Made by a program: the position numbers and the translations under genes. This document shows, piece after piece, positions 1 to 24,166 of a stretch of DNA of 64,000 bases; position 1 is the stretch's first letter; each line of letters begins with the position of its first letter. This DNA comes from a virus (Duplodnaviria; Heunggongvirae; Uroviricota; Caudoviricetes): IMG/VR virus record IMGVR_UViG_2639762987_000002; one strand, written 5' to 3'. The notes under the pieces are model-generated. The model saw nothing but the letters and a program-made list of their open reading frames with translations. It was not told the origin of the DNA and searched no databases.

Positions 1-633
1 ACTTTTGTAATGCACGTTGACGACATTATGGCGGCAGAGGATGCGGGTGATGTTATCGCAATCTGGCATTCACATACTGATGAATCAGCAGAAGCATCTG
101 ATGCCGATCGTGCAGGCTGTGAAGCGACGGAAGTTCCGTGGATGATTCTGGCTATTCGCAAGAATGTTGAGGGAGATGCCCCTTTCCATTTTAGCGAGAT
201 GAATGTGATCACACCTGATGGTTTCGAAATGCCATACCTGGGTAGACCGTATGTATTTGGCGTATTCGATTGCTGGATGTTGTGTCGGGACTATTTGAAG
301 CGTGAGTTTAACGTCGAACTAAACCCGAACGCACACCTGCATATTCCATCGTGGTACACCGGCGATAACGACATTCTCGATCAGAACTACCGTAACGAGG
401 GATTGGTGCGTCTTGCGCCCGGAACAGAGCCTCAACGTGGGGACGTATTCTTTATCCAATACGGGAAAATGCCTGACCACTGCGCGGTTTATATCGGCGA
501 TGGAATGATTCTTCATCACCAGATCGACCGCCTAAGTTGTCGTGCTTATTACGGCGGAATGTATCAGAAACATACGACGCATCACTTGCGTCACAGAGAC
601 TTGCTCAAGGGAGATGAGACGTGTCTGAGTTAG
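1..633 (+). CDS. Tail tip assembly protein, lambda gpK-like (JAB/MPN + NlpC/P60), 5' end cut by window edge
   Basis: Frame open from nt 1; HSHTDESAEASD metal motif then NlpC/P60-like Cys (FDCWMLCRDY) and His; followed by I- and J-like genes as in lambda. Confidence 0.7.
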   Translation, partial: TFVMHVDDIMAAEDAGDVIAIWHSHTDESAEASDADRAGCEATEVPWMILAIRKNVEGDAPFHFSEMNVITPDGFEMPYLGRPYVFGVFDCWMLCRDYLKREFNVELNPNAHLHIPSWYTGDNDILDQNYRNEGLVRLAPGTEPQRGDVFFIQYGKMPDHCAVYIGDGMILHHQIDRLSCRAYYGGMYQKHTTHHLRHRDLLKGDETCLS

Positions 634-1211
634 TTCATGTGCAGCTTGGCGGCCCTATGGCCAAACATTTTGGCCGCCACTGGCATCTAAAGGTGCGTAA
701 TACAAAACAGGCTCTGGATTTAATTGAGGCCAACAAGCCTGGGTTTAAAGCATGGATGAAGCGCAATATCAAAACCTATGACAGATACCACATCCAGATC
801 ACCAATAAACAGGGCCACAAGTGGTCTGTGGACGAGAGTGAATATCAGATGATGGGGCAGTCTGACAATATTGCAAAAATCCGCATTACACCTGTTCCGC
901 GAGGAAGCGGTGGATCTGCTTTTGGATGGTTTCAGACGGTTGTTGGAGCAGTATTAATGGTTGCCTCGATATGGGTGCCCGCTCTTGCGCCTCTCGGTTT
1001 GTCACTGATGATGGGCGGTATAGCGCAAATCATATCTCCGCAAGCCACTAACGAAAGTGTGAGGCAGGCGGATAACTCGAACTCTTATTACTTTGATGGA
1101 CCTCAAAACACAACAAACCAGGGGAACCCTGTACAGCTTATCTATGGCGAGGAAATTTTAGTTGGCTCACAGGTCGTGAGTTCTTCTATCACCATCGACC
1201 AGCTTATGTAA
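621..1211 (+). CDS. Tail assembly protein, lambda gpI-like
   Basis: 196 aa; hydrophobic central segment and C-terminal LIYGEEILVGSQVVS motif resembling lambda I; 13-nt overlap with upstream gene. Confidence 0.65.
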   Translation: MSELVHVQLGGPMAKHFGRHWHLKVRNTKQALDLIEANKPGFKAWMKRNIKTYDRYHIQITNKQGHKWSVDESEYQMMGQSDNIAKIRITPVPRGSGGSAFGWFQTVVGAVLMVASIWVPALAPLGLSLMMGGIAQIISPQATNESVRQADNSNSYYFDGPQNTTNQGNPVQLIYGEEILVGSQVVSSSITIDQLM

Positions 1212-1228: not shown

Positions 1229-4200
1229 ATGGAACAGTTCAAGAAGAAAAAATTACCGCTTCTTATTGCCGGTGCTGGTGGCAAGAAAAGTAAAAGCTCC
1301 AGCCGTACCCCGGTTGAAGCTGATGATACTGTCAATTCTCGTGCTATGGCAGCCATCCTCGACCTTCTTGGCGAGGGGGTTATCGGTGGCCTGGTAAATG
1401 GCGCAAAGTCGATCTTCATCGACGATTTACCGATCTTGAATGAAGATGGCTCTTCCAACTTCAGCGGTATTACATGGGATTTTCGTGACGGCTCACAAGA
1501 CCAGACGCCAATGGCTGGTTTTGATTTTGTTGAAACGCCTAAGTCCGTAAATATTCAGCTTAAAAAAACACACGACGTTACGGTTTCAATCGATAACGAT
1601 GAAGCTGATCGCGTTCGTGTCATCATGAAATTCCCCTCTTTACGTAGCGTTGATAAAAGCTCTGGCGATACAAATGGCACTACGGTGAAGTACAAATTCC
1701 AGATCGCCAACGCAGACGCAACATTTTCTGATGTAGTGGCAGAAGGTGAGAAAAGCGTTGATATCACGCTAACGGCAAAGAAAACAGGCGTGTATTACCG
1801 TAGCTATGAGCTGAAACTACCTAAGCCTGGTCGTGCATACAAGGTTAGGGTGATTCGTCTTACGGATGATAACAGTAGCCAGTACCTCTACAACGATACC
1901 TGGGTTGATTCCATCGGTGAGATTGTAGATACCCCCATGAACTACCCTAACTCTGCACTTGTTGGCTTAAAGGTCAATTCAGAGCAGTTTGGTAGCACAA
2001 TGCCTTCCCGTTCGTATTTGGTGCGCGGTATCAAAATTCGAGTGCCGTCAAACTACAACGAATACACCAATACTTATGTCGGCGTATGGGACGGTACTTT
2101 TAAGCTGTTGTCTTCTTCAAACCCTGCGTGGATTCTCTACGATTTGCTTACCAATACTCGGTATGGTCTTGGGCAATTTGTGTCGGAGTCCATGATTGAC
2201 CTCGGCCAGCTCTACCAGATTGGTCGATATTGTGACGAAGAGGTCGATGATGGCTTTGGGGGTAAAGAGAAACGCTTTGCAATCAATACGCAGATCACCA
2301 GTCGACAGGACGCATACCGATTAATTCAGGATATTGCCGGTGCATTCCGCGGCATGGTGTTTTGGGCTGGTGGCATGGTTAACATCATGCAGGATAGCCC
2401 ATCAGATCCGGTAATGATGTTTACCAACTCCAACGTCAAAGATGGACTGTTTACCTATAAAGGTTCTGCGCGTAAAGATCGCCCATCCGTTGCGCTCGTG
2501 ACCTACAACAACAAGGAGGACGGTTATAAGCAAAACATCGAGTACGTTGAAGATCAGGACGCAATGCGCCGTTATGGTGAGCGTAAAACAGAAGTCGTAG
2601 CATTTGGATGTACAAGCCGAGGCCAGGCCCACCGAGTTGGTTTGTGGCTTTTGTATACCGCCAGAATGGAGTCGGATGTAATTACATTTACTGCCGGCTT
2701 AGACGCCTCATTTCTGATGCCCGGTGAAACCGTTCTGATTCAGAACAAATATCGTGCAGGTAAACGTAACTCCGGTCGAATTGTGGAGTTTACCAAAAAC
2801 AGCATCACTCTCGATGCGCCTGTGTCGTTAGCTAAAAGCGGCAGCTTTATTCGGATATTGAATCAGGAAGGCAAAATCGTTGAACGCGATGTTCTTGAAA
2901 CTGGCGAAAACATAACAAAGGTTACGTTTTCAAAAGCCCTGTCGTCAGCGGAAACGCCTGTTTTGAACGGTGTCTGGACAATTACAGAACCAGATCTTGA
3001 ACCTATGCGCGTTCGCATCGTTAACATCGCGCAGGGGGAAACGCCGGGTAGCTTTGACATCACCGCTGTTGAGAACAATCCGTCTAAATATGAGGCAATC
3101 GACAATGGTGCAACGCTTATCCCGCAGAATACGACGGTATTGGACCCGACTTACTCCAAGCCGTCTAATTTGCAAATCACTGAAGGGACTTACCTCTCAA
3201 GCCCGGGCAACCTGTCAGTAAAACTGACTGCAACATGGGAAGGGAAATCTCCAGAGTATTGGATCAGTTGGCGACGTTCTGATGAAAACAATGTATCGAA
3301 CTGGCAATCGGCGCGTGTAACCGAAGAACAATACGAAATCGTTAATGTCGCGGAGAATGGACGCTACGACTTCCAACTGTATGCGGTTTCATTCAACGGT
3401 AAAAAAACAGAAATTATCAGTACCGTTTATCAGGTGCTGGGAACAATGACACCGCCGGATGCACCAACGTCATTAACGGCCGTTGGAGACTATCGTAATG
3501 TGATACTGAATTGGGTTAATCCAGATTCGGTAGACCTTGATCACATTAATGTTTACGCATCCCAGACCAACAATCTGGATACGGCGAAACTGATCGCAGA
3601 GTCTGCAAGCACCACCTTTACACATGCTGGTCTTGGGGATAGCGAAACGTGGTATTACTGGGTTCGAGCATCGAACAAGCGAGGTATGTTAAGCCCTCCG
3701 AACTCAAACTTGGGTACAGAGGCGACAACTCGCGATGTACTGTCGTTCCTGGCTGGCAAAATTACATCTTCCGAGCTTGGTCAGGCTCTGCTTGAGGACA
3801 TCAACAGCAAAGCCTCTCAAGAAGCAGTTGACGAGTTAAATGAGCATATCAACCAGAGCGTCGAATCTTTGGAGGGGTCGGTAAACGACGTTAAGGAAGA
3901 TATAGCTGAATTAGATAAGCAGTTCAGCGATAACCTCGCGGGTTTTGAAATAAAATTCAACGAGCGTAGCGATGCTTTGGAGAACGCACAAACCGAGCTT
4001 AAAGGTGAGGTTTCGGCAACGATCGACAAGGTCAATGAAGCGTTTGAAAAAATTGATGCTACTGATGCTGCAATTGTTGAAATCGAAAACACCGTATCTG
4101 AACACGATAAAGCTCTCGCTAATACAGTCGAGGCAATAAAGGCTGCAAGAGACGAAGCGGCGGCTCTTATTGCTAAGGAAAGCGAGGCTCGTGTTGAAGG

Positions 4201-5953
4201 TGATGCCGCAAACGCTAAACAACTGGAAGTGTTGCAGTCGACGGTAGAGGAAAGTTCCGCAGCCGTTGAAGAAATGAAAAAGACGGTTGCAGAGGTCGAT
4301 CGTGCCAGTGCAGAACTGACTACGAACATTGAGGCGTTAGCTAAAACAAATATTGACCTGGCTCTTCGTCAAGATGAAGACCAGCACAAGCAGATGGTCA
4401 ATAACGCGAAGATCGCAACAACACAGAAAACCTTTGCTGATGATATGTCTGCAATGGCCACGAAGGTTGAGGAAATTCGCGTAGAAATTGGCGAAGACAT
4501 TAAGGCCAGTATTCTGGAAGAGTCCACCGCTCGTGCCGATGGCGATGAAGCGTTGGCAAAGCGTGTCACTCAGCTGCAATCTAAGTTTGAAGGAGATATC
4601 AGCGCGGCGATTAGTACAGAACAGGAGGCTCGTACATCTGCCGATGAAGCTTTGACGAAACAAATAACTCAGCTTGAGTCGAAAGTAAGCAACGATATTG
4701 TCGCAGCCATTAAGGAAGAGCAAGAAGCCCGAGCAACGGAAGATTCGGCTCTGGCAAGCCAGATCACCCAACTTCAGGCAAAAGTTGATGATGATATTTC
4801 TGCTGCAATACGCAGTGAGCAGGAGGCGCGTGCGAGCGGAGACTCTGCGTTAGCTAAACAAATAAACCAGCTTCAAGCAAAGGTTGACGGTGATATATCC
4901 GCTGCCATCACTCAGGAGCAGGAGGCCAGAGCAAGTGCTGACCAGGCGCTCTCACGAGAAATTAACAGCCTGCGAGCACAAACCGGAACTGATATTGCCG
5001 CAGCGGTTGCTGTAGAGACAAAGGCAAGGACTGATGCCGATAGTGCATTGTCCACTCAGATTTCGTCTCTTACAGCAAAAGCTAATGATCTCGAGGCATC
5101 TCTTGCCAGAGAAACAACGGCTCGTGCTGATGGTGATACCGCTTTAACAAAAGAGGTTTCAAGTTTAAAAGCACAGACAGCGAAAGATATTAGTGCGGCC
5201 GTTGCAGTTGAAACGCAGGCTCGAACTGATGCTGACTCGGCGTTGTCGTCTCAGATCACCAAGCTGACCTCTCAATACAAAGAGGATATTAAAGCGGCTG
5301 TAGCAACCGAAACGAAAACGCGTACAGAGCAAGATGCTGCATTGGCGACTCAAATCACAAACTTAGAGTCTCAAACGGCAGCCAACATTTCCGCGGCGGT
5401 AACAACTGAAACGACAGCGAGAACGCAGGCAGATAATGCTCTGAGTGGGCGAATCGATACTCTGAAAGCAGAGGTGGATGGAAATACCGCGACAATTCAA
5501 CAGCAGGCAACAGCTATTGCTAATACCAACAAAAAAGTGTCAACCGCGTGGACGTTGAAAATGGAAACTTCAACGAGCGGAGGGCAGAAGTATGTTGCTG
5601 GTATTGCGCTTGGTATCGACACCACTGGCCTTTCTCAGTTTTTGGTGCAGGCTGACAGGTTTGGTTTGGTCAACTCTGTTAACGGGAAGATCACCACGCC
5701 ATTTGTTATCGAAAACAGTATCGCCTATATGAATGGTGCGTATATCAAGGATGGCACAATCACCAATGCAAAAGTAGGCGATCTGCAATCTACCAATTTT
5801 GTTAGCGGTAGATCTGGATGGCGGTTCGGCAAAAATGGAACGCTTGAGATCAACGGTAATAGCGGGGGTAATGGGCGACTGGTCATAAATGGTCAGCGGA
5901 TTGACGTTTATGACGATAACAACGTCTTACGAGTAAGAATTGGCCTTCTGTGA
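1229..5953 (+). CDS. Tail tip host-specificity protein, lambda gpJ-like, with inserted coiled-coil repeat stalk
   Basis: About 1574 aa from ATG 1229 (ORF track starts at TTG 1223); blocks NSALVGLKVNSEQFG, GFGGKEKRF, AFGCTSRGQAHRVGLWL, KYVAGIALGI..LSQFLV match lambda J from memory. Confidence 0.8.
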   Translation: MEQFKKKKLPLLIAGAGGKKSKSSSRTPVEADDTVNSRAMAAILDLLGEGVIGGLVNGAKSIFIDDLPILNEDGSSNFSGITWDFRDGSQDQTPMAGFDFVETPKSVNIQLKKTHDVTVSIDNDEADRVRVIMKFPSLRSVDKSSGDTNGTTVKYKFQIANADATFSDVVAEGEKSVDITLTAKKTGVYYRSYELKLPKPGRAYKVRVIRLTDDNSSQYLYNDTWVDSIGEIVDTPMNYPNSALVGLKVNSEQFGSTMPSRSYLVRGIKIRVPSNYNEYTNTYVGVWDGTFKLLSSSNPAWILYDLLTNTRYGLGQFVSESMIDLGQLYQIGRYCDEEVDDGFGGKEKRFAINTQITSRQDAYRLIQDIAGAFRGMVFWAGGMVNIMQDSPSDPVMMFTNSNVKDGLFTYKGSARKDRPSVALVTYNNKEDGYKQNIEYVEDQDAMRRYGERKTEVVAFGCTSRGQAHRVGLWLLYTARMESDVITFTAGLDASFLMPGETVLIQNKYRAGKRNSGRIVEFTKNSITLDAPVSLAKSGSFIRILNQEGKIVERDVLETGENITKVTFSKALSSAETPVLNGVWTITEPDLEPMRVRIVNIAQGETPGSFDITAVENNPSKYEAIDNGATLIPQNTTVLDPTYSKPSNLQITEGTYLSSPGNLSVKLTATWEGKSPEYWISWRRSDENNVSNWQSARVTEEQYEIVNVAENGRYDFQLYAVSFNGKKTEIISTVYQVLGTMTPPDAPTSLTAVGDYRNVILNWVNPDSVDLDHINVYASQTNNLDTAKLIAESASTTFTHAGLGDSETWYYWVRASNKRGMLSPPNSNLGTEATTRDVLSFLAGKITSSELGQALLEDINSKASQEAVDELNEHINQSVESLEGSVNDVKEDIAELDKQFSDNLAGFEIKFNERSDALENAQTELKGEVSATIDKVNEAFEKIDATDAAIVEIENTVSEHDKALANTVEAIKAARDEAAALIAKESEARVEGDAANAKQLEVLQSTVEESSAAVEEMKKTVAEVDRASAELTTNIEALAKTNIDLALRQDEDQHKQMVNNAKIATTQKTFADDMSAMATKVEEIRVEIGEDIKASILEESTARADGDEALAKRVTQLQSKFEGDISAAISTEQEARTSADEALTKQITQLESKVSNDIVAAIKEEQEARATEDSALASQITQLQAKVDDDISAAIRSEQEARASGDSALAKQINQLQAKVDGDISAAITQEQEARASADQALSREINSLRAQTGTDIAAAVAVETKARTDADSALSTQISSLTAKANDLEASLARETTARADGDTALTKEVSSLKAQTAKDISAAVAVETQARTDADSALSSQITKLTSQYKEDIKAAVATETKTRTEQDAALATQITNLESQTAANISAAVTTETTARTQADNALSGRIDTLKAEVDGNTATIQQQATAIANTNKKVSTAWTLKMETSTSGGQKYVAGIALGIDTTGLSQFLVQADRFGLVNSVNGKITTPFVIENSIAYMNGAYIKDGTITNAKVGDLQSTNFVSGRSGWRFGKNGTLEINGNSGGNGRLVINGQRIDVYDDNNVLRVRIGLL
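4500..5480 (+). repeat. About ten in-frame tandem 99-bp (33-aa) repeats inside the gpJ-like gene
   Basis: Repeating unit DISAAIxxEQEARAxxDxALxxQIxQLxxKVxx read in the translation; predicted alpha-helical. Confidence 0.75.
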
Positions 5954-6046: not shown

Positions 6047-9000
6047 ATGTGGTACAGGGAAGGTACTATCACATTTACACAGGGCAGCAATACTCTGGTT
6101 GGGGCAGGTACAGCCTGGAACGTAACAGCTAATGGTGTGTTGCCGGGGATGATCGTCATTGGCCCCGACAATAAGCTGTATGAGATCAAGCGCGTAACCA
6201 GTGATACGAACATTGTTCTCTCAGAACCTTATACCGGCGAAACTCAGTCTGAAGTTCCGTGCCGAATCATTACGACCTATGAAGGCGACTTAACACAGTT
6301 TAGCGCGCGCTTTACAGCACTAATGTCGCGTATGTCGGCTGATTCCAAGTCCATGCGCAGTTGGTTGACTGCTCTGGATGAGGTGACAATCGAGCGTGAA
6401 GACGGTACAGAAGTGACCGTTAAGCCGCTAATGCAGATCGTCAACGAGCACAACGAAAACGTTGAGTGGTATAAAAATAACACTGACGCGATTGATGCTG
6501 CTGGCGACAAAGCTCGTGAGGCGGCGGCCAGTGCTGCCGCAGCAGCAAAAAGCGCCAATGCCGCTGGAGAAAAAGCCTCTCAAGCGTCTCAAAGTGCATC
6601 CGCTGCGGCATCCTCACAAAGTGCCGCAAGTGCGAGTGCAACTGCTGCGAAAAAATCTGAAACGAATGCTGCAGCGTCACAAAAATCTGCAGCCACTTCT
6701 GCATCCACCGCGACCACGAAGGCGTCAGAAGCTGCCACCTCAGCCCGGGATGCGGCGGCCTCAAAAGAGGCAGCAAAATCATCAGAAACGAGCGCAGCCT
6801 CGAGCGCCAGTAATGCCGCTTCCTCGGCAACGGCGGCTGGAAATTCCGCGAAGGCGGCAAAAACGTCCGAGACGAACGCCAGGTCTTCTGAAACGGCAGC
6901 GGGACAGAGCGCCTCGGCTGCGGCAGGCTCAAAAACAGCGGCTGCGTCGTCTGCCAGTGCCGCGTCAACAAGTGCCGGGCAGGCCTCAGCCAGTGCCACC
7001 GCCGCCGGAAAATCGGCAGAAAGTGCCGCATCGTCTGCTTCAACGGCCACAACGAAGGCTGGCGAAGCCACTGAACAGGCCAGCGCAGCAGCGAGGTCTG
7101 CTTCCGCAGCGAAGACATCCGAAACGAACGCGAAAGCGTCGGAAACCCGTGCAGAATCCTCAAAAACGGCAGCCGCATCGTCCGCCAGTTCGGCAGCGTC
7201 ATCGGCATCATCTGCGTCTGCTTCAAAAGATGAGGCGACCAGACAGGCGTCAGCAGCGAAGGGCAGCGCCACGACGGCATCCACGAAAGCAACAGAGGCG
7301 GCAGGCAGTGCGACGGCTGCATCTCAGAGCAAAACTGCTGCCGAATCTGCTGCGACTCGTGCAGAAGCTGCCGCTGATCGTGCTGAAGAGATTGCCGGTG
7401 CAGTTGCGATGGAAGACGCAAGCCTTACAACTAAAGGTGTTGTGAAACTTAGCAGTGCTGTCGATAGCACCAGTGAATCGCTGGCTGCAACGCCAAAGGC
7501 AGTTAAAACTGTTAAAGATAGTTCAGTTCAAAAAACTGGCGACACAATGGGAGGGCAGTTAAAAATCGGCACGATAAATGCTCTTCGAATATTCAACCAA
7601 GCCTTTGGCCTTATTTTTAGGCGTTCCGAAGATTATATTCATCTTATCCCGACTAATGAAGGGGAGGGAGAAAATGGAGACATCGGTTCATTAAGACCAT
7701 TCTCTATAAACTTAAGATCAGGGTTGGTGTCCATCGGTAATGGACTAAAAGTTGGTGGTAGTGTTACTGGTAATTTGACCGGAAACGCAGATACTGCGAC
7801 CAAGATCAAGACAGCACGTAAGATTGGGGGCGTGGCATTTGATGGATCGGCAGATATCAACTTGCCTGGAGTCAACGCTACCGGTAATCAAAACACTACA
7901 GGTAATGCTGCGACCGCCACGAAACTTCAGGCAGCCAGAACGATTAACGGTGTGTCATTTGATGGTAGTGCAAATATCACATTGACCCCTTCAAATATTG
8001 GGGCGTTGGCATTAACTGGAGGGACTCTTTCAGGTGGTTTAACTGCTGCTGGTGAGATTATTTCAAAGTCAGCAAATGGTCTGCGTATTGCCTATGGCAA
8101 CTATGGATTCTTTATCCGAAATGATGGCTCAAATACATATTTTATGTTGACAGATTCGGGTAACAGTCTTGGTACGTACAATAGCTTAAGGCCGTTTATA
8201 ATTAGTAACTCTACTGGCAATGTTACAATTGCAACTAAATTAAACGCGAGTAGTGGTATCACTGGATCTTTATCGGGTAATGCAAGCACAGCAACCAAAT
8301 TGCAGACAGCAAGAACCATCGGTGGTGTTAGCTTCGATGGCACTGCGAATATTAATTTGCCTGGTGTTAATGCTGCCGGTAATCAGAACACTACCGGTAA
8401 CGCGGCCACAGCGACCAAGTTGCAAACAGCTAGAACTATTAACGGGGTGTCGTTTAACGGCTCTGCGAATATTTCAATACCAACAATTACGTCCAGAGGG
8501 CGCGTTACTGCGCTCACCGGTACAACACAAGGTGCTGCGACTGGATTGCAGATGTACGAGGCATATAACAATGGCTACCCTTCGTCTTACGGGAATGTGC
8601 TTCATCTTAAGGGCGCAACGGCCGTTGGTGAAGGTGAGTTGTTCATAGGTTGGAGCGGTACAAGTGGTGCTCATGCACCTGTACATGTACGTTCGCGACG
8701 AGATACGGATACATCCAGTTGGTCTGAATGGGCGCAAGTTTATACGTCCAAAGACTCAATTCCAGGTGTCAATGCCACCGGTAATCAGAACACTACTGGC
8801 AACGCAGCCTCTGCAACGAAGTTGCAGACAGCCAGAACAATTGGAGGTGTGTCGTTTAATGGCACCGCCAATATTAACTTGCCGGGTGTTAATATAGCGG
8901 GTAATCAGAATACGACTGGTAACGCAGCTTCAGCCACGAAGTTACAAACGGCTCGTACTATCGGTGGTGTTAGTTTTAACGGCACAGCCAATATTAACTT

Positions 9001-9571
9001 ACCTGGTGTGAATACGACCGGTAATCAGAACACTACTGGTAATGCTGCAACCGCCACAAAATTGCAGACAGCAAGGAAAATTGCTGGTGTGGCGTTTGAT
9101 GGCTCTGCCGATATAACTTTGACTGCGGCTAACCTTAATGCTTATACGAAAACAGAGGTAACAAACCTTCTCAGTTCCTATGTGAAGAGTAGTTCTCTTC
9201 CAAGCATGACTGTGCGAACTTCCTCTGTTTCTGGTGGGGATATGGGCATGAGTTTGTCCACATTCATTAGCCACCTTAAATCAAATGGGGCATTTAGCAA
9301 AAGTTATTGGATTGGCTTTGGCGATGCTATGGGATTCAATGCTGGCAGTATCAACAATATAACGGGATTTGGTGCTGTAGAATTAGCAGAATCTATAATC
9401 GAAGTTTTTAATCTACCTAACGGTGATTATACAATTCGTTTAACAACGTCACATAAAGCTGACTACGGTGGAGTGACAAACGCAATCCTCGTTTATCACT
9501 ACCGTAGTAATAGAAGTCCGTCAGGTCAATGGCTGAAATTTGCCGGTACTGTTGGGGCAACAAGCAACTGA
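6047..9571 (+). CDS. Tail fibre protein (side-tail-fibre type)
   Basis: 1174 aa after RBS AAGGAG; long Ala/Ser-rich tract; repeated ~40-aa units with GNAATATKLQTARTIGGVSF typical of phage tail-fibre repeats; follows J-like gene. Confidence 0.75.
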   Translation: MWYREGTITFTQGSNTLVGAGTAWNVTANGVLPGMIVIGPDNKLYEIKRVTSDTNIVLSEPYTGETQSEVPCRIITTYEGDLTQFSARFTALMSRMSADSKSMRSWLTALDEVTIEREDGTEVTVKPLMQIVNEHNENVEWYKNNTDAIDAAGDKAREAAASAAAAAKSANAAGEKASQASQSASAAASSQSAASASATAAKKSETNAAASQKSAATSASTATTKASEAATSARDAAASKEAAKSSETSAASSASNAASSATAAGNSAKAAKTSETNARSSETAAGQSASAAAGSKTAAASSASAASTSAGQASASATAAGKSAESAASSASTATTKAGEATEQASAAARSASAAKTSETNAKASETRAESSKTAAASSASSAASSASSASASKDEATRQASAAKGSATTASTKATEAAGSATAASQSKTAAESAATRAEAAADRAEEIAGAVAMEDASLTTKGVVKLSSAVDSTSESLAATPKAVKTVKDSSVQKTGDTMGGQLKIGTINALRIFNQAFGLIFRRSEDYIHLIPTNEGEGENGDIGSLRPFSINLRSGLVSIGNGLKVGGSVTGNLTGNADTATKIKTARKIGGVAFDGSADINLPGVNATGNQNTTGNAATATKLQAARTINGVSFDGSANITLTPSNIGALALTGGTLSGGLTAAGEIISKSANGLRIAYGNYGFFIRNDGSNTYFMLTDSGNSLGTYNSLRPFIISNSTGNVTIATKLNASSGITGSLSGNASTATKLQTARTIGGVSFDGTANINLPGVNAAGNQNTTGNAATATKLQTARTINGVSFNGSANISIPTITSRGRVTALTGTTQGAATGLQMYEAYNNGYPSSYGNVLHLKGATAVGEGELFIGWSGTSGAHAPVHVRSRRDTDTSSWSEWAQVYTSKDSIPGVNATGNQNTTGNAASATKLQTARTIGGVSFNGTANINLPGVNIAGNQNTTGNAASATKLQTARTIGGVSFNGTANINLPGVNTTGNQNTTGNAATATKLQTARKIAGVAFDGSADITLTAANLNAYTKTEVTNLLSSYVKSSSLPSMTVRTSSVSGGDMGMSLSTFISHLKSNGAFSKSYWIGFGDAMGFNAGSINNITGFGAVELAESIIEVFNLPNGDYTIRLTTSHKADYGGVTNAILVYHYRSNRSPSGQWLKFAGTVGATSN
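6480..7390 (+). repeat. Low-complexity Ala/Ser/Thr-rich coding tract in tail fibre gene
   Basis: Protein region of ~300 aa dominated by A, S, T, K, E; generates spurious long ORFs in other frames and on the minus strand. Confidence 0.8.
7780..9125 (+). repeat. Tail-fibre 120-nt (40-aa) repeats
   Basis: Three in-phase consecutive copies at 8761-8880, 8881-9000, 9001-9120 plus diverged copies near 7861 and 8341 and partial copies. Confidence 0.8.
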
Positions 9572-9661: not shown

Positions 9662-9916
9662 ATGAGCTATGGTGCACAGGTTTGGTCGCCATCAAGACAG
9701 GAGATGGTCGATGCGTTGGCCCCTGTTTATTACCTCGATTATTTTACTCCCTCTGGTTCAGGAAGTAGAACATATGAGGTTGAGGCGGGATTGGGAATCG
9801 ACTATTACATAATGGACGTAACCAATGGAAAATACACAAGTCTTACGGTTTCTGGAAATACCATTTCGTGGTCTGGAGCTAGTGGCAATTTAAACATATT
9901 GGTTTTTCAAAAATAA
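9662..9916 (+). CDS. Hypothetical protein (tail-fibre-associated by position)
   Basis: 84 aa ORF with RBS AAGGA; no recognisable motif. Confidence 0.4.
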   Translation: MSYGAQVWSPSRQEMVDALAPVYYLDYFTPSGSGSRTYEVEAGLGIDYYIMDVTNGKYTSLTVSGNTISWSGASGNLNILVFQK

Positions 9917-10524
9917 TGTACGGAAGCAAGATATATCGATCTGACGGGAAGGTCTGGATGTCTCCTTCTTTGTCTCCTATCGTTTTTCAGAGAAAGCAGG
10001 TTGTTTCTTTGTCTGGCGGGACAGAGTTTAACACCCAAATATCTCCAGATCGTTCACCGATGATTTTTGTTGCCTATTCGAAAGCTGTTTCATTAATAGC
10101 CAACAGAATAGTGCGTAATAACCAGGTGATTTACAGTTTCGGAGGTCAGGGTAGCGACTCTAGTGCCACGATATACGTATTTTCGAAAGGTATAGCCAAA
10201 AAAGAAACTTGGGGCATGAGTTTTTTCAATGCGCGAGGAGAGGAGATCTATAATACGGCAAATATCCCACTTTCATTTACCTTTCTTAATAATACGGAGT
10301 GGAACAGTTCTGGAGGGCATGTTTTTGATTACCCGCCAGCGATAATCCCAACATATGCAAATGTGTTCGCGGTTCCAGTACCGGGCGGGGCCATGACAAT
10401 GGTTTATGGATATGCGGCATATGGAAATACTGTTAGTTCCATATTCGTAAACCAACTTAATGGCGGCCATAGTTTTAGCGTAAATGGCAGAGTACCGGTA
10501 ATAAATAGAAATCTGTATAACTGA
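9916..10524 (+). CDS. Hypothetical protein (tail-fibre-associated by position)
   Basis: 202 aa ORF, start overlaps upstream stop (TAATG); Gly/Ser/Asn-rich; no recognisable motif. Confidence 0.45.
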   Translation: MYGSKIYRSDGKVWMSPSLSPIVFQRKQVVSLSGGTEFNTQISPDRSPMIFVAYSKAVSLIANRIVRNNQVIYSFGGQGSDSSATIYVFSKGIAKKETWGMSFFNARGEEIYNTANIPLSFTFLNNTEWNSSGGHVFDYPPAIIPTYANVFAVPVPGGAMTMVYGYAAYGNTVSSIFVNQLNGGHSFSVNGRVPVINRNLYN

Positions 10525-10534
10525 TGAGTAAACG

Positions 10535-10765
10535 ATGAAAAGATTATTTCTAACAATAGCTGTTGTTCTCTCTCTTACTGGCTGTCAGAAATTGCCGACA
10601 CCCATATGTTATGGTGAGGCTATCATTGGTGGACAGGAGACAGTCATACCTATATATGCTGTTAAAAAGGTTAACGGCTATACCTTATACAAAGCGGGTA
10701 GCATCTATAACTGGCGATGGGTTGGAGTAGGTGCTTTCTCATCAGTGCGTTGCAATGCTGAATGA
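10535..10765 (+). CDS. Small lipoprotein, candidate receptor-blocking / superinfection-exclusion protein
   Basis: 76 aa; signal peptide MKRLFLTIAVVLSLTGC with lipobox LTGC; lies directly downstream of tail fibre genes. Confidence 0.5.
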   Translation: MKRLFLTIAVVLSLTGCQKLPTPICYGEAIIGGQETVIPIYAVKKVNGYTLYKAGSIYNWRWVGVGAFSSVRCNAE

Positions 10766-23615: not shown

Positions 23616-23690
23616 GATGGTGTAGCTCAGCGGTAGAGCAGTTGGCTGTTAACCAACTGGTCGGTGGTTCGAATCCACCCACCATCGCCA
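23616..23690 (+). tRNA. tRNA-Asn (anticodon GTT)
   Basis: Manual fold: acceptor GATGGTG/CACCATC, anticodon loop CTGTTAA, T-loop TTCGAAT, 3' CCA. Confidence 0.75.
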
Positions 23691-23695
23691 ATTTA

Positions 23696-23782
23696 GGGGA
23701 GTTAGTCCGTAGAGGTAGCGGTGTAGACTGTAAATCTACTGTCATGGCGACTCGGGTGGTTCGACTCCATCACTCCCCACCA
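23696..23782 (+). tRNA. tRNA-Tyr (anticodon GTA), long variable arm
   Basis: 87 nt; acceptor GGGGAGT/ACTCCCC, anticodon loop CTGTAAA, T-loop TTCGACT, 3' CCA. Confidence 0.65.
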
Positions 23783-23786
23783 AATT

Positions 23787-23862
23787 GCCGGTTTAGCTCA
23801 GTTGGTAGAGCGCCTGCCTTGTAAGCAGGATGTCAGCGGTTCGAGTCCGTTAACCGGCACCA
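23787..23862 (+). tRNA. tRNA-Thr (anticodon TGT)
   Basis: 76 nt; acceptor GCCGGTT/AACCGGC, D-loop AGTTGGTAGA, anticodon loop CTTGTAA, T-loop TTCGAGT, 3' CCA. Confidence 0.8.
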
Positions 23863-24079
23863 ACACAACAGGAAAGAGCATTGAAAACCGCCGAGACTGC
23901 CCTGTTTTAAGCGTAAGTCCGTGCAAACGTCATACAGTGCTCTTTTCGTTGTGGTTGATGCGCAGACTGATGCGCGGAAAGAAATGCCCCAGCGACACAC
24001 GAGGCGAGTTCACACACTGCAATGCAGTCAGTAGCCGGGGTCGCTAAGCCGGAGATCAGTACCGGTAACCACAACAATT

Positions 24080-24166
24080 GGAGAGTAGGGAGCATGGTGC
24101 TCAAGCGGTCTTGAAAACCGTCCCATTGTGCAAACGATGATGGTTCGATTCCATTACTCTCCGCCA
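24080..24166 (+). tRNA. tRNA-Ser (anticodon TGA), long variable arm
   Basis: 87 nt; acceptor GGAGAGT/ACTCTCC, anticodon loop CTTGAAA, T-loop TTCGATT, 3' CCA. Confidence 0.65.

Follow-up and report, generated by a model that had tools for sequence, protein, structure and literature searches.

The ten tandem 33-residue units of this gpJ-like protein are, in our structure models, the distal half of a much enlarged alpha-helical shaft in the central tail fiber, and the best reading is that of an enlarged, modular shaft that is probably metastable. Judged by its sequence relatives, the protein belongs to a known class of central-fiber shafts, of which it is a long and unusually regular example. 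Owing to this regularity, the sequence logic behind the shaft can be read off easily: three hendecads per unit, a mirror-symmetric motif of small and hydrophobic residues, and an E-R-D core ladder. The broader question behind such shafts is how noncontractile tails acquire energy and a signal for opening and for crossing the outer membrane.

The gene lies in the window, the 64,000-nucleotide stretch of IMG/VR virus record IMGVR_UViG_2639762987_000002 (Caudoviricetes) that was analyzed here. The genome carrying it is an SSU5-like E. coli phage-plasmid, of a kind that about 3% of the complete E. coli genomes carry. The J open reading frame extends on the plus strand from an ATG at 1229 to a stop codon at 5953, and a TTG is found in the same frame at 1223. 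At the nucleotide level, the gene is 94% identical to CYRAN_20 of phage Cyrano/pLF82, which is annotated as 'tail host specificity protein J'. The gene order M-L-K-I-J is common to Cyrano, PhiR41_1, and SSU5, and K- and I-like genes likewise precede J in the window. Comparison of codon usage with the tRNA cluster of the window gave nothing notable. The features on which the argument rests are the following.

10-633, plus strand: gpK-like tail-tip gene with JAB and NlpC/P60 (Pfam; synteny with Cyrano K)
621-1211, plus strand: gpI-like tail-tip gene (synteny with Cyrano I)
1229-5953, plus strand: gpJ-like central tail fiber/tail tip gene, 1,574 aa (open reading frame, Pfam, BLASTP)
1229-3727, plus strand: hub and FNIII core of J, aa 1-833 (colinear with residues 3-835 of lambda J)
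3728-4495, plus strand: predicted proximal, nonrepetitive alpha-helical shaft with heptad-like periodicity, aa 834-1089 (AF2, hydrophobic periodicity)
4163-4249, plus strand: isolated, degenerate unit copy, aa 979-1007 (13.9 bits with the unit HMM, E = 1.8e-5)
4496-5482, plus strand: ten tandem 33-aa units, aa 1090-1418 (unit HMM, lag-33 identity)
4778-4876, plus strand: 99 bases, one unit at the unit 3/4 junction, missing in the E. coli HCP30S3_I2 allele (alignment to the window)
5483-5896, plus strand: central straight fiber beta-prism (PF09327), aa 1419-1556 (Pfam, E = 2.3e-41)
5897-5953, plus strand: short tail at the C terminus, aa 1557-1574, with the stop codon (translation; ending as in T1 gp33)
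6047-9571, plus strand: side tail fiber gene downstream of J, 1,174 aa, listed for context (Pfam Gp34_trimer)

BLASTP aligned aa 20 to 858 with lambda J at 32% identity (E = 8e-119, 873 columns), and Pfam identified FNIII-A_GpJ at aa 101 to 235 (E = 1.1e-29), Phage-tail_3 at 357 to 520 (E = 7.5e-34), fn3 at 744 to 823, and Phage_Tail_Tip (PF09327) at 1422 to 1556. The NCBIfam model lambda_TipJ matched with E = 1.8e-158 and 529 bits, below its equivalog cutoff of 1950; by these scores, the protein is a J homolog and not a lambda-J equivalog. Lambda gpJ (PDB 8IYK, 8XCI, and 8XCJ) consists of a hub, two FNIII domains, an alpha-helical shaft, a central straight fiber, and a receptor-binding domain. 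The window protein has in common with it the colinear hub and FNIII domains, a shaft at the equivalent place, the PF09327 prism, and the position after K- and I-like genes. The prism, the counterpart of lambda residues 841 to 971, aligned with lambda J 841 to 931 by BLASTP. In a Foldseek comparison of the AF2 model with the PDB, the prism domain alone was recovered, matching lambda gpJ (8xcj, E = 4e-7, and 8xci) and the SU10 tip fiber, and the helix gave nothing informative. Whereas lambda gpJ continues after the prism with a LamB-binding domain of 160 to 200 aa, the window protein stops 18 aa past it. BLASTP produced no alignment with lambda J 932 to 1132, and on this comparison the LamB-type receptor-binding domain of lambda (about residues 972 to 1132) is without a counterpart.

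The repeats themselves are confirmed. Amino acid identity at a lag of 33 residues is 0.50, compared with a mean of 0.10 (SD, 0.016; maximum, 0.16) in 2,000 shuffles; with a value about 24 SD above the shuffles and units conserved in hundreds of proteins, chance or artifact is ruled out as their origin. The units start at nucleotides 4496, 4595, 4694, 4793, 4892, 4991, 5090, 5186, 5285, and 5384, unit 7 (5090 to 5185) encoding 32 aa, and share the consensus D-I-x-A-A-I-x-x-E-x-x-A-R-A-x-A-D-x-A-L-S-x-Q-I-x-x-L-x-A-x-x-x-G. Each scores 47 to 60 bits with the unit HMM, values that are partly circular because the HMM was built from these ten units, so that independent support comes from the lag-33 statistic and from the units in other proteins. 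The same HMM found no unit in lambda J. Searches with Pfam, strict as well as lenient, returned no family spanning the unit, only subthreshold coiled-coil families such as SF-assemblin. At the DNA level, the units are 39 to 64% identical (mean, 51%), their longest common word is 11 nt, and synonymous sites between them are saturated. Tandem Repeats Finder detected no 99-bp array in the J gene, and the repeat is visible at the protein level or with low-stringency seeds only. Given this mean identity and the shortness of the shared words, the units must be old.

Together, the ten units make up the last 329 residues of the helical shaft. Each unit comprises three hendecads, equivalent to nine helical turns, and I2, I6, E9, R13, D17, L20, I24, and L27 form its core stripe. 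In a profile of 134 distinct units, positions 4, 12, 14, 19, 21, and 29 are small (A/S/T) in 87 to 100%, positions 6, 24, and 27 are hydrophobic, and E9 and R13 are 100% conserved. Positions 15 to 18 and 32 to 1 are rich in G and D.

AF2 predicts helix over aa 834 to 1405 with two short breaks, at 988 to 993, which the degenerate unit copy spans, and at 1253 to 1259. The proximal helices (834 to 987 and 994 to 1124; pLDDT about 80) come from single-sequence prediction and the distal ones (1058 to 1252 and 1260 to 1405) from prediction with an MSA, in which the units have a pLDDT of 70 to 87. Not a single proline occurs among the 583 residues from 838 to 1420. In the BLASTP alignment, the 560-aa stretch from 859 to 1418 is inserted between lambda residues 835 and 841 and thus inside the short alpha-helical shaft of lambda (PMC11101478). 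That shaft is a three-helix structure of about 53 residues (809 to 861), in contrast to about 572 residues with ten units here; as modeled, the window shaft, with about 570 helical residues, is ten times as long. Hydrophobicity shows periods of 3.65 and 2.07 in the repeats and of 3.56 alone upstream, the first two being harmonics that a 33-residue period forces. Directly after the helix, AF2 predicts strands at 1411 to 1416, 1419 to 1431, 1437 to 1448, and 1454 to 1463, and the first two strands of the prism keep the register of an eleventh, degenerate unit.

These results bear out most of what a sequence-only reading had claimed, namely, that the protein is gpJ-like, that it carries about ten tandem in-frame 33-residue repeats, that these are predicted to be helical, and that they are absent from lambda J. 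The long coiled coil that it had predicted is in line with the AF2 helix, and cryo-electron microscopy of the homologous F-pyocin central fiber (PMC12874032, PMC13455828) speaks for a trimeric coiled coil. It was right in placing the repeats between the J core and a C-terminal domain, but this domain is the conserved beta-prism rather than a receptor-binding region of the lambda type. Its proposal that the repeats lengthen the central fiber agrees with the enlarged shaft, but lengthening is probably only half of their function, given the fold switch of the pyocin shaft.

Among solved structures, phmmer found the best sequence match in T1 gp33 (9l9p_S, E = 3.8e-30), followed by the F2 pyocin tail fiber (25vf_A, E = 4e-25), aligned over units 7 to 10 and the prism (query 452 to 729 against chain 911 to 1193), and it also found DEV gp56 (9ze4_N). 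T1 gp33 (PDB 9L9P, chain S; PMC11945409) shares the prism and the C-terminal ending of the window protein but differs in length (1,172 aa) and has about three 33-aa units (DDIQASLTDIREVIATETEALSREIDQLKAQIG) instead of ten. Its C-terminal 350 residues are unresolved in the structure, being only modeled, with a length of about 37 nm (PMC11945409). The central fibers of F-type pyocins (F7, PMC12874032; F2/ATCC 15442, PDB 25vf, PMC13455828) resemble the window protein in having a coiled coil directly before the PF09327 prism, a period of about 33 residues, the small/hydrophobic motif, and no fused receptor-binding domain. They differ in that their switch region comprises 163 residues, or about five units, compared with ten units and about 255 further helical residues in the window protein. 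The pyocin shaft carries side fibers and its tip PyoF11/F12, for neither of which an equivalent was identified in the window. In the pyocin, side fibers are required to stabilize the coiled coil, which weighs against a fold switch in the window protein. That switch has been shown for the pyocin and is proposed by homology here. A similar helical unit precedes the PF09327 prism in DEV gp56, a 'gpJ-like short fibre' (PDB 9ZE4; PMC12892993), and is found in the shaft of T7-type tail fibers (PF03906), but these proteins belong to podoviruses and have shorter arrays with unit spacings of 32, 36, or 39 residues. The J proteins SSU5_020, Cyrano CYRAN_20, and that of PhiR41_1 are orthologs, and in Klebsiella relatives (2,201 aa) the whole C-terminal half is replaced. 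In the records and literature on SSU5-like J proteins, we found no description of the repeat, and the literature on SSU5 held nothing specific to J regarding tail-tip morphology or receptor.

From the anatomy, the predicted helix, the homology, and the motif described here, we infer a trimeric, metastable shaft that switches from coiled coil to beta-structure to open the tail, a proposal that we consider reasonably likely and that extends to a phage J protein what has been demonstrated for the pyocin. There, cryo-electron microscopy revealed a three-stranded coiled coil (PMC13455828), and in F7 its conversion to a beta-prism is required for killing (PMC12874032). In our model, three chains would form a trimeric coiled coil in the virion, with a repeat part of about 49 nm in a shaft of about 85 nm, which would clamp the FNIII domains shut and keep the tip far from the tube. 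Engagement of a receptor at the tip would trigger the conversion, which would nucleate at the constitutive prism strands and proceed upward, each unit becoming one beta-hairpin with strands at positions 4 to 14 and 19 to 29 and turns at 15 to 18 and 30 to 3. The repeat part would thereby shorten about fivefold, from about 49 to about 10 nm. The tube would be pulled up to the outer membrane, and release of the FNIII closure would let the tape measure protein and the DNA exit.

This model draws on the correspondence between the unit and the pyocin switch motif. For F7, a pattern SxSxxMxxLxS with buried Glu/Asp-Arg i+4 pairs was reported (PMC12874032). In our own, provisional mapping, unit positions 19 to 29 read SxSxxMxxLxS, with the mirror image at 4 to 14, and E9-R13 corresponds to an i+4 salt bridge, Glu1039-Arg1043, reported there. 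The motif partners all fit i + j = 33, as an antiparallel meander needs. When the unit is plotted on an ideal 11/3 helical wheel, four of the six positions conserved as small point outward, in agreement with the report on the 'S' positions of the pyocin. Small residues beside a coiled-coil core may also be a sign of tight packing of the helices. From the position numbers, the published mutated positions of F7 (987, 995, 1010, and 1017) could not be aligned to a strict 33-residue period. Covariation between unit columns (MI with APC), weighing hairpin against helix contacts, was not significant for hairpins with 211 units (P value of about 0.13), and the suggestive signal obtained with an Neff of about 21 vanished in this larger set. 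A few prism strands at the start of the nonswitching region were proposed as a 'seed' in the pyocin (PMC12874032), and the strands predicted directly after the helix in the window protein are of this type.

A static shaft, in which a rigid trimeric coiled coil sets the reach of the tip, for example, through O antigen or capsule, without any large change, is possible but in our view not probable. In that case, unit number would tune reach only, and our result would come down to an accurate account of a lengthened central fiber. The AF2 helices are uninterrupted, a monomer prediction giving only helix for the shaft, and the similar units of T7-type tail fiber proteins lie in a shaft that is regarded as structural. 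For the C terminus of T1 gp33, the published description goes no further than a long flexible extension (PMC11945409), and lambda and T5 were stated to show no extensive switch (PMC12874032). Variation in unit number between lineages with conserved first and last units, described below, would also suit a spacer. Such a shaft, however, leaves unexplained why small residues are nearly invariant at helix-exposed positions, why the mirror-symmetric motif is identical to the switch motif of the pyocin, and why positions 15 to 18 and 32 to 1 are rich in G and D, which is unusual for a coiled coil. Moreover, even the short shaft of lambda turns partly into beta-strands: its AHS residues 841 to 861, which align with aa 1419 to 1439 here, are helical when closed and become beta-strands on LamB binding (PMC11101478).

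It is unlikely that the shaft serves chiefly to carry side tail fibers or small tip RBPs, with the repeats as repeated binding sites, although such a role would be compatible with the other readings. F-pyocin side fibers bind at a kink of the shaft (PMC13455828, PMC12874032), DEV gp56 recruits gp55 and gp54, and the window protein offers both helix breaks and a side fiber gene directly after J. The product of that gene matches Mu S and T4 gp34 among PDB sequences and belongs to PHROG tail fiber families, but comparison with PDB sequences revealed no similarity of its N terminus to the pyocin side fiber or to any solved attachment domain. Three side fibers would not need ten nearly equivalent sites, and there are no small RBP genes immediately 3' of J.

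Relatives differ in unit number. The window and Cyrano proteins have the same ten units, PhiR41_1 has nine, SSU5 has five, and the wider J family ranges from 3 to 21 with the first and last units conserved. Two pairs of otherwise near-identical alleles differ by an exact in-register 99-bp indel, with microhomology at both junctions: PhiR41_1 and CMS-2020a SCU-175 (ten units), and the window and HCP30S3_I2 (nine units), where the deletion junctions read CAACTTCAG|GCAAAAGTTGA and CAGCTTCAA|GCAAAGGTTGA. Among IMG/VR alleles whose tip is 96 to 99% identical to that of the window, all 26 have ten units, and a span shorter by 99 bp was found in 1 of the 40 matches listed, of 165 full-length matches among E. 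coli plasmid alleles. The suggestion that the array is prone to variation in repeat number by recombination is only weakly true, as the two indels and the family range speak for it and shared words of 11 nt or less against it; the comparison among related phages that had been called for does reveal variation, but it is rare among close alleles. Changes in unit number would come about when, on rare occasions, whole units are gained or lost in register. Frequent slippage is rejected, given the divergence of the unit DNA and the counts among the alleles listed. A recombination-prone contingency locus, in which frequent copy number change varies fiber length within populations, is very improbable despite the two indels and their microhomology, as the low DNA identity of the units, their saturated synonymous sites, their invisibility to Tandem Repeats Finder, and the allele counts all speak against it.

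Tentatively, the unit could be the quantum of a modular alpha-to-beta spring, in which nine turns (about 5 nm) collapse into one hairpin (about 1 nm). By their number, the units would then fix both the stroke, here about 40 nm, and the energy stored for opening the tail tip, and in-register gain or loss would tune this number to the thickness of the host surface layers. Were this so, SSU5-like phage-plasmids would be a natural length series with which to test the fold switch in a real phage instead of a bacteriocin. The alleles found in nature span 3 to 21 units, with pairs exactly one unit apart among them, and provide material to test shaft length against reach, stroke, and host range. A Cor-type exclusion gene lies near J in the window, as one does in T1.

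Our analysis confirmed both the observation and the main interpretation of the sequence-only reading of the J gene, which had described a helical, coiled-coil-type extension of about ten tandem in-frame 33-residue repeats absent from lambda J. Two details had to be corrected: what the C-terminal domain is, and how often the copy number changes. What we add is an explicit 33-residue architecture, its apparent match to a published fold-switch motif, and a natural copy-number series.

The window is a portion of an SSU5-like phage-plasmid. Its J gene matches Escherichia phage Cyrano (pLF82 of E. coli LF82) and phage CMS-2020a over the full length at 94-95%; other SSU5-like elements match only the first 55%. 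The Cyrano counterpart carries the annotation "tail host specificity protein J"; genes M, L, K, and I precede it.

Features of the J gene and protein (domains from Pfam)
nt 1229-5953, + strand: J open reading frame from the ATG at 1229, 1574 aa
aa 101-235: FNIII-A_GpJ
aa 357-520: Phage-tail_3
aa 744-823: fn3
aa 1090-1418 (nt 4496-5482): array of ten 33-aa units
aa 1422-1556: Phage_Tail_Tip (PF09327), at the extreme end

The units are arranged head-to-tail, the seventh being 32 aa long, and lag-33 identity within the array is 0.50, compared with 0.10 ± 0.016 in 2000 shuffles. A degenerate lone copy lies at aa 979-1007. Tandem Repeats Finder did not detect the J array because its units are only 39-64% identical in DNA (mean, 51%), with a longest common word of 11 nt. 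Synonymous sites of the units are effectively randomised, and the array is therefore old.

BLASTP aligned aa 20-858 with lambda J 3-835 (32% identity) and aa 1419-1507 with lambda J 841-931, so that the 560 residues between these blocks occupy the exact place of lambda's short alpha-helical shaft. By cryo-EM, lambda J comprises hub domains, two FNIII domains, a three-helix shaft (~809-861), a central straight fibre forming a beta-sheet prism, and a receptor-binding domain, and shaft residues 841-861 become two beta-strands upon LamB binding (PMC11101478). This switching segment aligns with aa 1419-1439 of the window's J. A search of lambda J with an HMM of the unit found zero units. AF2 with an 81-sequence alignment predicted helix at aa 1058-1252 and 1260-1405 of the segment 1057-1574 (pLDDT mostly 70-87), followed by a beta domain opening with strands 1411-1416, 1419-1431, 1437-1448, and 1454-1463; given aa 820-1125 as a single sequence, it predicted helix at 834-987 and 994-1124. 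Together with the absence of proline from aa 838-1420, these helices delimit a shaft of ~572 residues, for which 0.15 nm per residue of predicted helix gives ~85 nm, ~49 nm of it in the repeats. Hydrophobic periodicity is 3.56 (heptad-like) in the proximal shaft and 3.65 (33/9, hendecad-like) and 2.07 in the repeats, the latter two values being harmonics of the 33-residue period and not to be over-read. Two antisense open reading frames within the shaft-coding region (3817-4329 and 4337-4771, both on the - strand; 170 and 144 aa) are probably not genes but by-products of its Ala/Glu-rich, stop-poor composition.

The C-terminal receptor-binding region expected from sequence proved to be the PF09327 prism; J stops 18 residues past it, as does T1 gp33, and has no counterpart of the lambda receptor-binding domain.

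Four entries of interest emerged from a phmmer search of PDB sequences. T1 gp33 (9L9P chain S) contains 33-aa units of its own and shares the C terminus of J, and the F2 pyocin tail fibre (25VF) aligns with J over the prism and units 7-10. The other two are DEV gp56 (9ZE4) and lambda J, the latter matched in the prism only. The J feature is one of a class that T1, F-type pyocins, and DEV are now known to share. Flexibility prevented the last 350 residues of T1 gp33 from being resolved, and they were represented by a modelled extension of 37 nm (PMC11945409). In F-type pyocins, two cryo-EM studies showed the homologous segment to be a three-stranded coiled coil at which the side fibres attach (PMC13455828, PMC12874032). 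In the post-ejection state of the F7 pyocin, the entire 163-residue coiled coil becomes a triangular beta-prism, and introducing Gln at the small residues packed in the prism corners abolishes killing while leaving assembly unaffected; the authors describe the pattern SxSxxMxxLxS together with i+4 Glu-Arg pairs that are buried, and of 120 siphophage central fibres they predict 24 to switch similarly, with no mention of repeats (PMC12874032).

From 134 distinct units of SSU5-like J proteins, we built a profile: D1, I2, A4 (95%), A/S at 5, I/V/L at 6, E9 (100%), A/T at 12, R13 (100%), A/T/V at 14, A/G at 16, D17 (96%), A19, L20, S/A/G at 21, I/V at 24, L27, A/S at 29, and G/D at 33. Mapped by sequence, this unit appears to fit the pyocin fold-switch pattern: SxSxxMxxLxS can be read at positions 19-29 and its mirror image at 4-14, with E9 and R13 as the putative i+4 pair. 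All motif partners satisfy i+j=33, the condition for cross-strand neighbours in a predicted antiparallel hairpin that would turn at 15-18 and 30-3. Because consecutive units obey this relation among themselves as well as internally, the columns could stay aligned through a meander of any length. Covariation between unit columns gave no significant signal for the hairpin contacts (p ~0.13). Of the constitutive prism strands, the first two (NTATIQQQATAIA and VSTAWTLKMETS) would keep the register of the two half-units. On an ideal 11/3 helical wheel, I2, I6, E9, R13, D17, L20, and I24 form the core stripe and A4, A14, A19, and A29 point outward, like the reported pyocin "S" positions.

Units per J protein among relatives
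Cyrano and CMS-2020a (SCU-107): 10
CMS-2020a (SCU-175): 10
PhiR41_1: 9
SSU5: 5
Lambda: 0
78 IMG/VR loci: 3 to about 12
26 IMG/VR loci with tips 96-99% identical to the window's: 10 in all

The array is present in 168 of 5426 complete E. coli genomes (3.1%), in every case on a plasmid (mostly ~100-125 kb) and in none on the chromosome; the sources include humans, pigs, chickens, cattle, a dolphin, and a giant panda. In 165 of the 168, the match extends over 80% or more of the query, and among the 40 matches listed, nearly all span the same 1401 bp. The HCP30S3_I2 allele lacks exactly window 4778-4876, one unit lost between units 3 and 4, the most similar neighbours, with junctions CAACTTCAG/GCAAAAGTTGA and CAGCTTCAA/GCAAAGGTTGA. 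An exact 99-bp unit also distinguishes PhiR41_1 from CMS-2020a (SCU-175); the indel is flanked by GAyATATCwGCTGCTATTAA, and the DNA is otherwise near-identical. Unit-by-unit comparison showed orthologous units to be colinear and the first and last to be conserved. Whole units are therefore gained or lost in register, but rarely.

In two Klebsiella phage-plasmids (GArcari-2022b and vB_Kpn_1825-KPC53), a J frame of 2201 aa from position 4001 is 75% identical in nucleotides to the window's J over the N-terminal 55%; the C-terminal half is different and much longer, with 7- and 11-residue periodicity and a dissimilar C terminus, and the 33-aa unit was not found in these proteins. Five IMG/VR loci (L009, L045, L061, L073, and L074) have tip-domain frames of 416-1098 aa, counted from the first Met following the upstream stop and far shorter than full J, which suggests interrupted or frameshifted genes or assembly errors.

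When all 1.84 billion representative proteins were scanned with phmmer, 1843 clusters reached E ≤ 1e-3, of which 110 reached E ≤ 1e-30. In the best 138 proteins, a unit spacing of 32 residues is commonest, followed by 36, 33, and 39, and the longest arrays have 24 units. One J homologue of 2138 aa (P0121), with the same order of FNIII-A_GpJ, Phage-tail_3, and PF09327 (1856-2000), bears 21 units, including a run of 18 consecutive ones spaced at 33 residues; its array is double that of the window's J. Ten units are thus not exceptional. T7-type fibre proteins, too, contain similar units.

Elsewhere in the window, four tRNA genes (Asn-GTT, Tyr-GTA, Thr-TGT, and Ser-TGA) cluster at 23616-24166 (+ strand); codon usage of J and the side fibre gene has no obvious bias towards them. 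The side tail fibre gene (6047-9571; 1174 aa, with a Gp34_trimer domain and Mu/P1 S-like parts) carries three tandem 120-bp (40-aa) repeats near its C terminus (8765-9119), the sole Tandem Repeats Finder array within the 64 kb. Downstream of it lie a small "outer membrane protein" frame (9662-9916), a 202-aa membrane protein (9916-10524), and a 76-aa homologue of the Cor superinfection-exclusion protein (10535-10765; phrog_1119, E=7.8e-30). As the Cor proteins of T1, phi80, and N15 block FhuA, this homologue may hint at the receptor of the central fibre.
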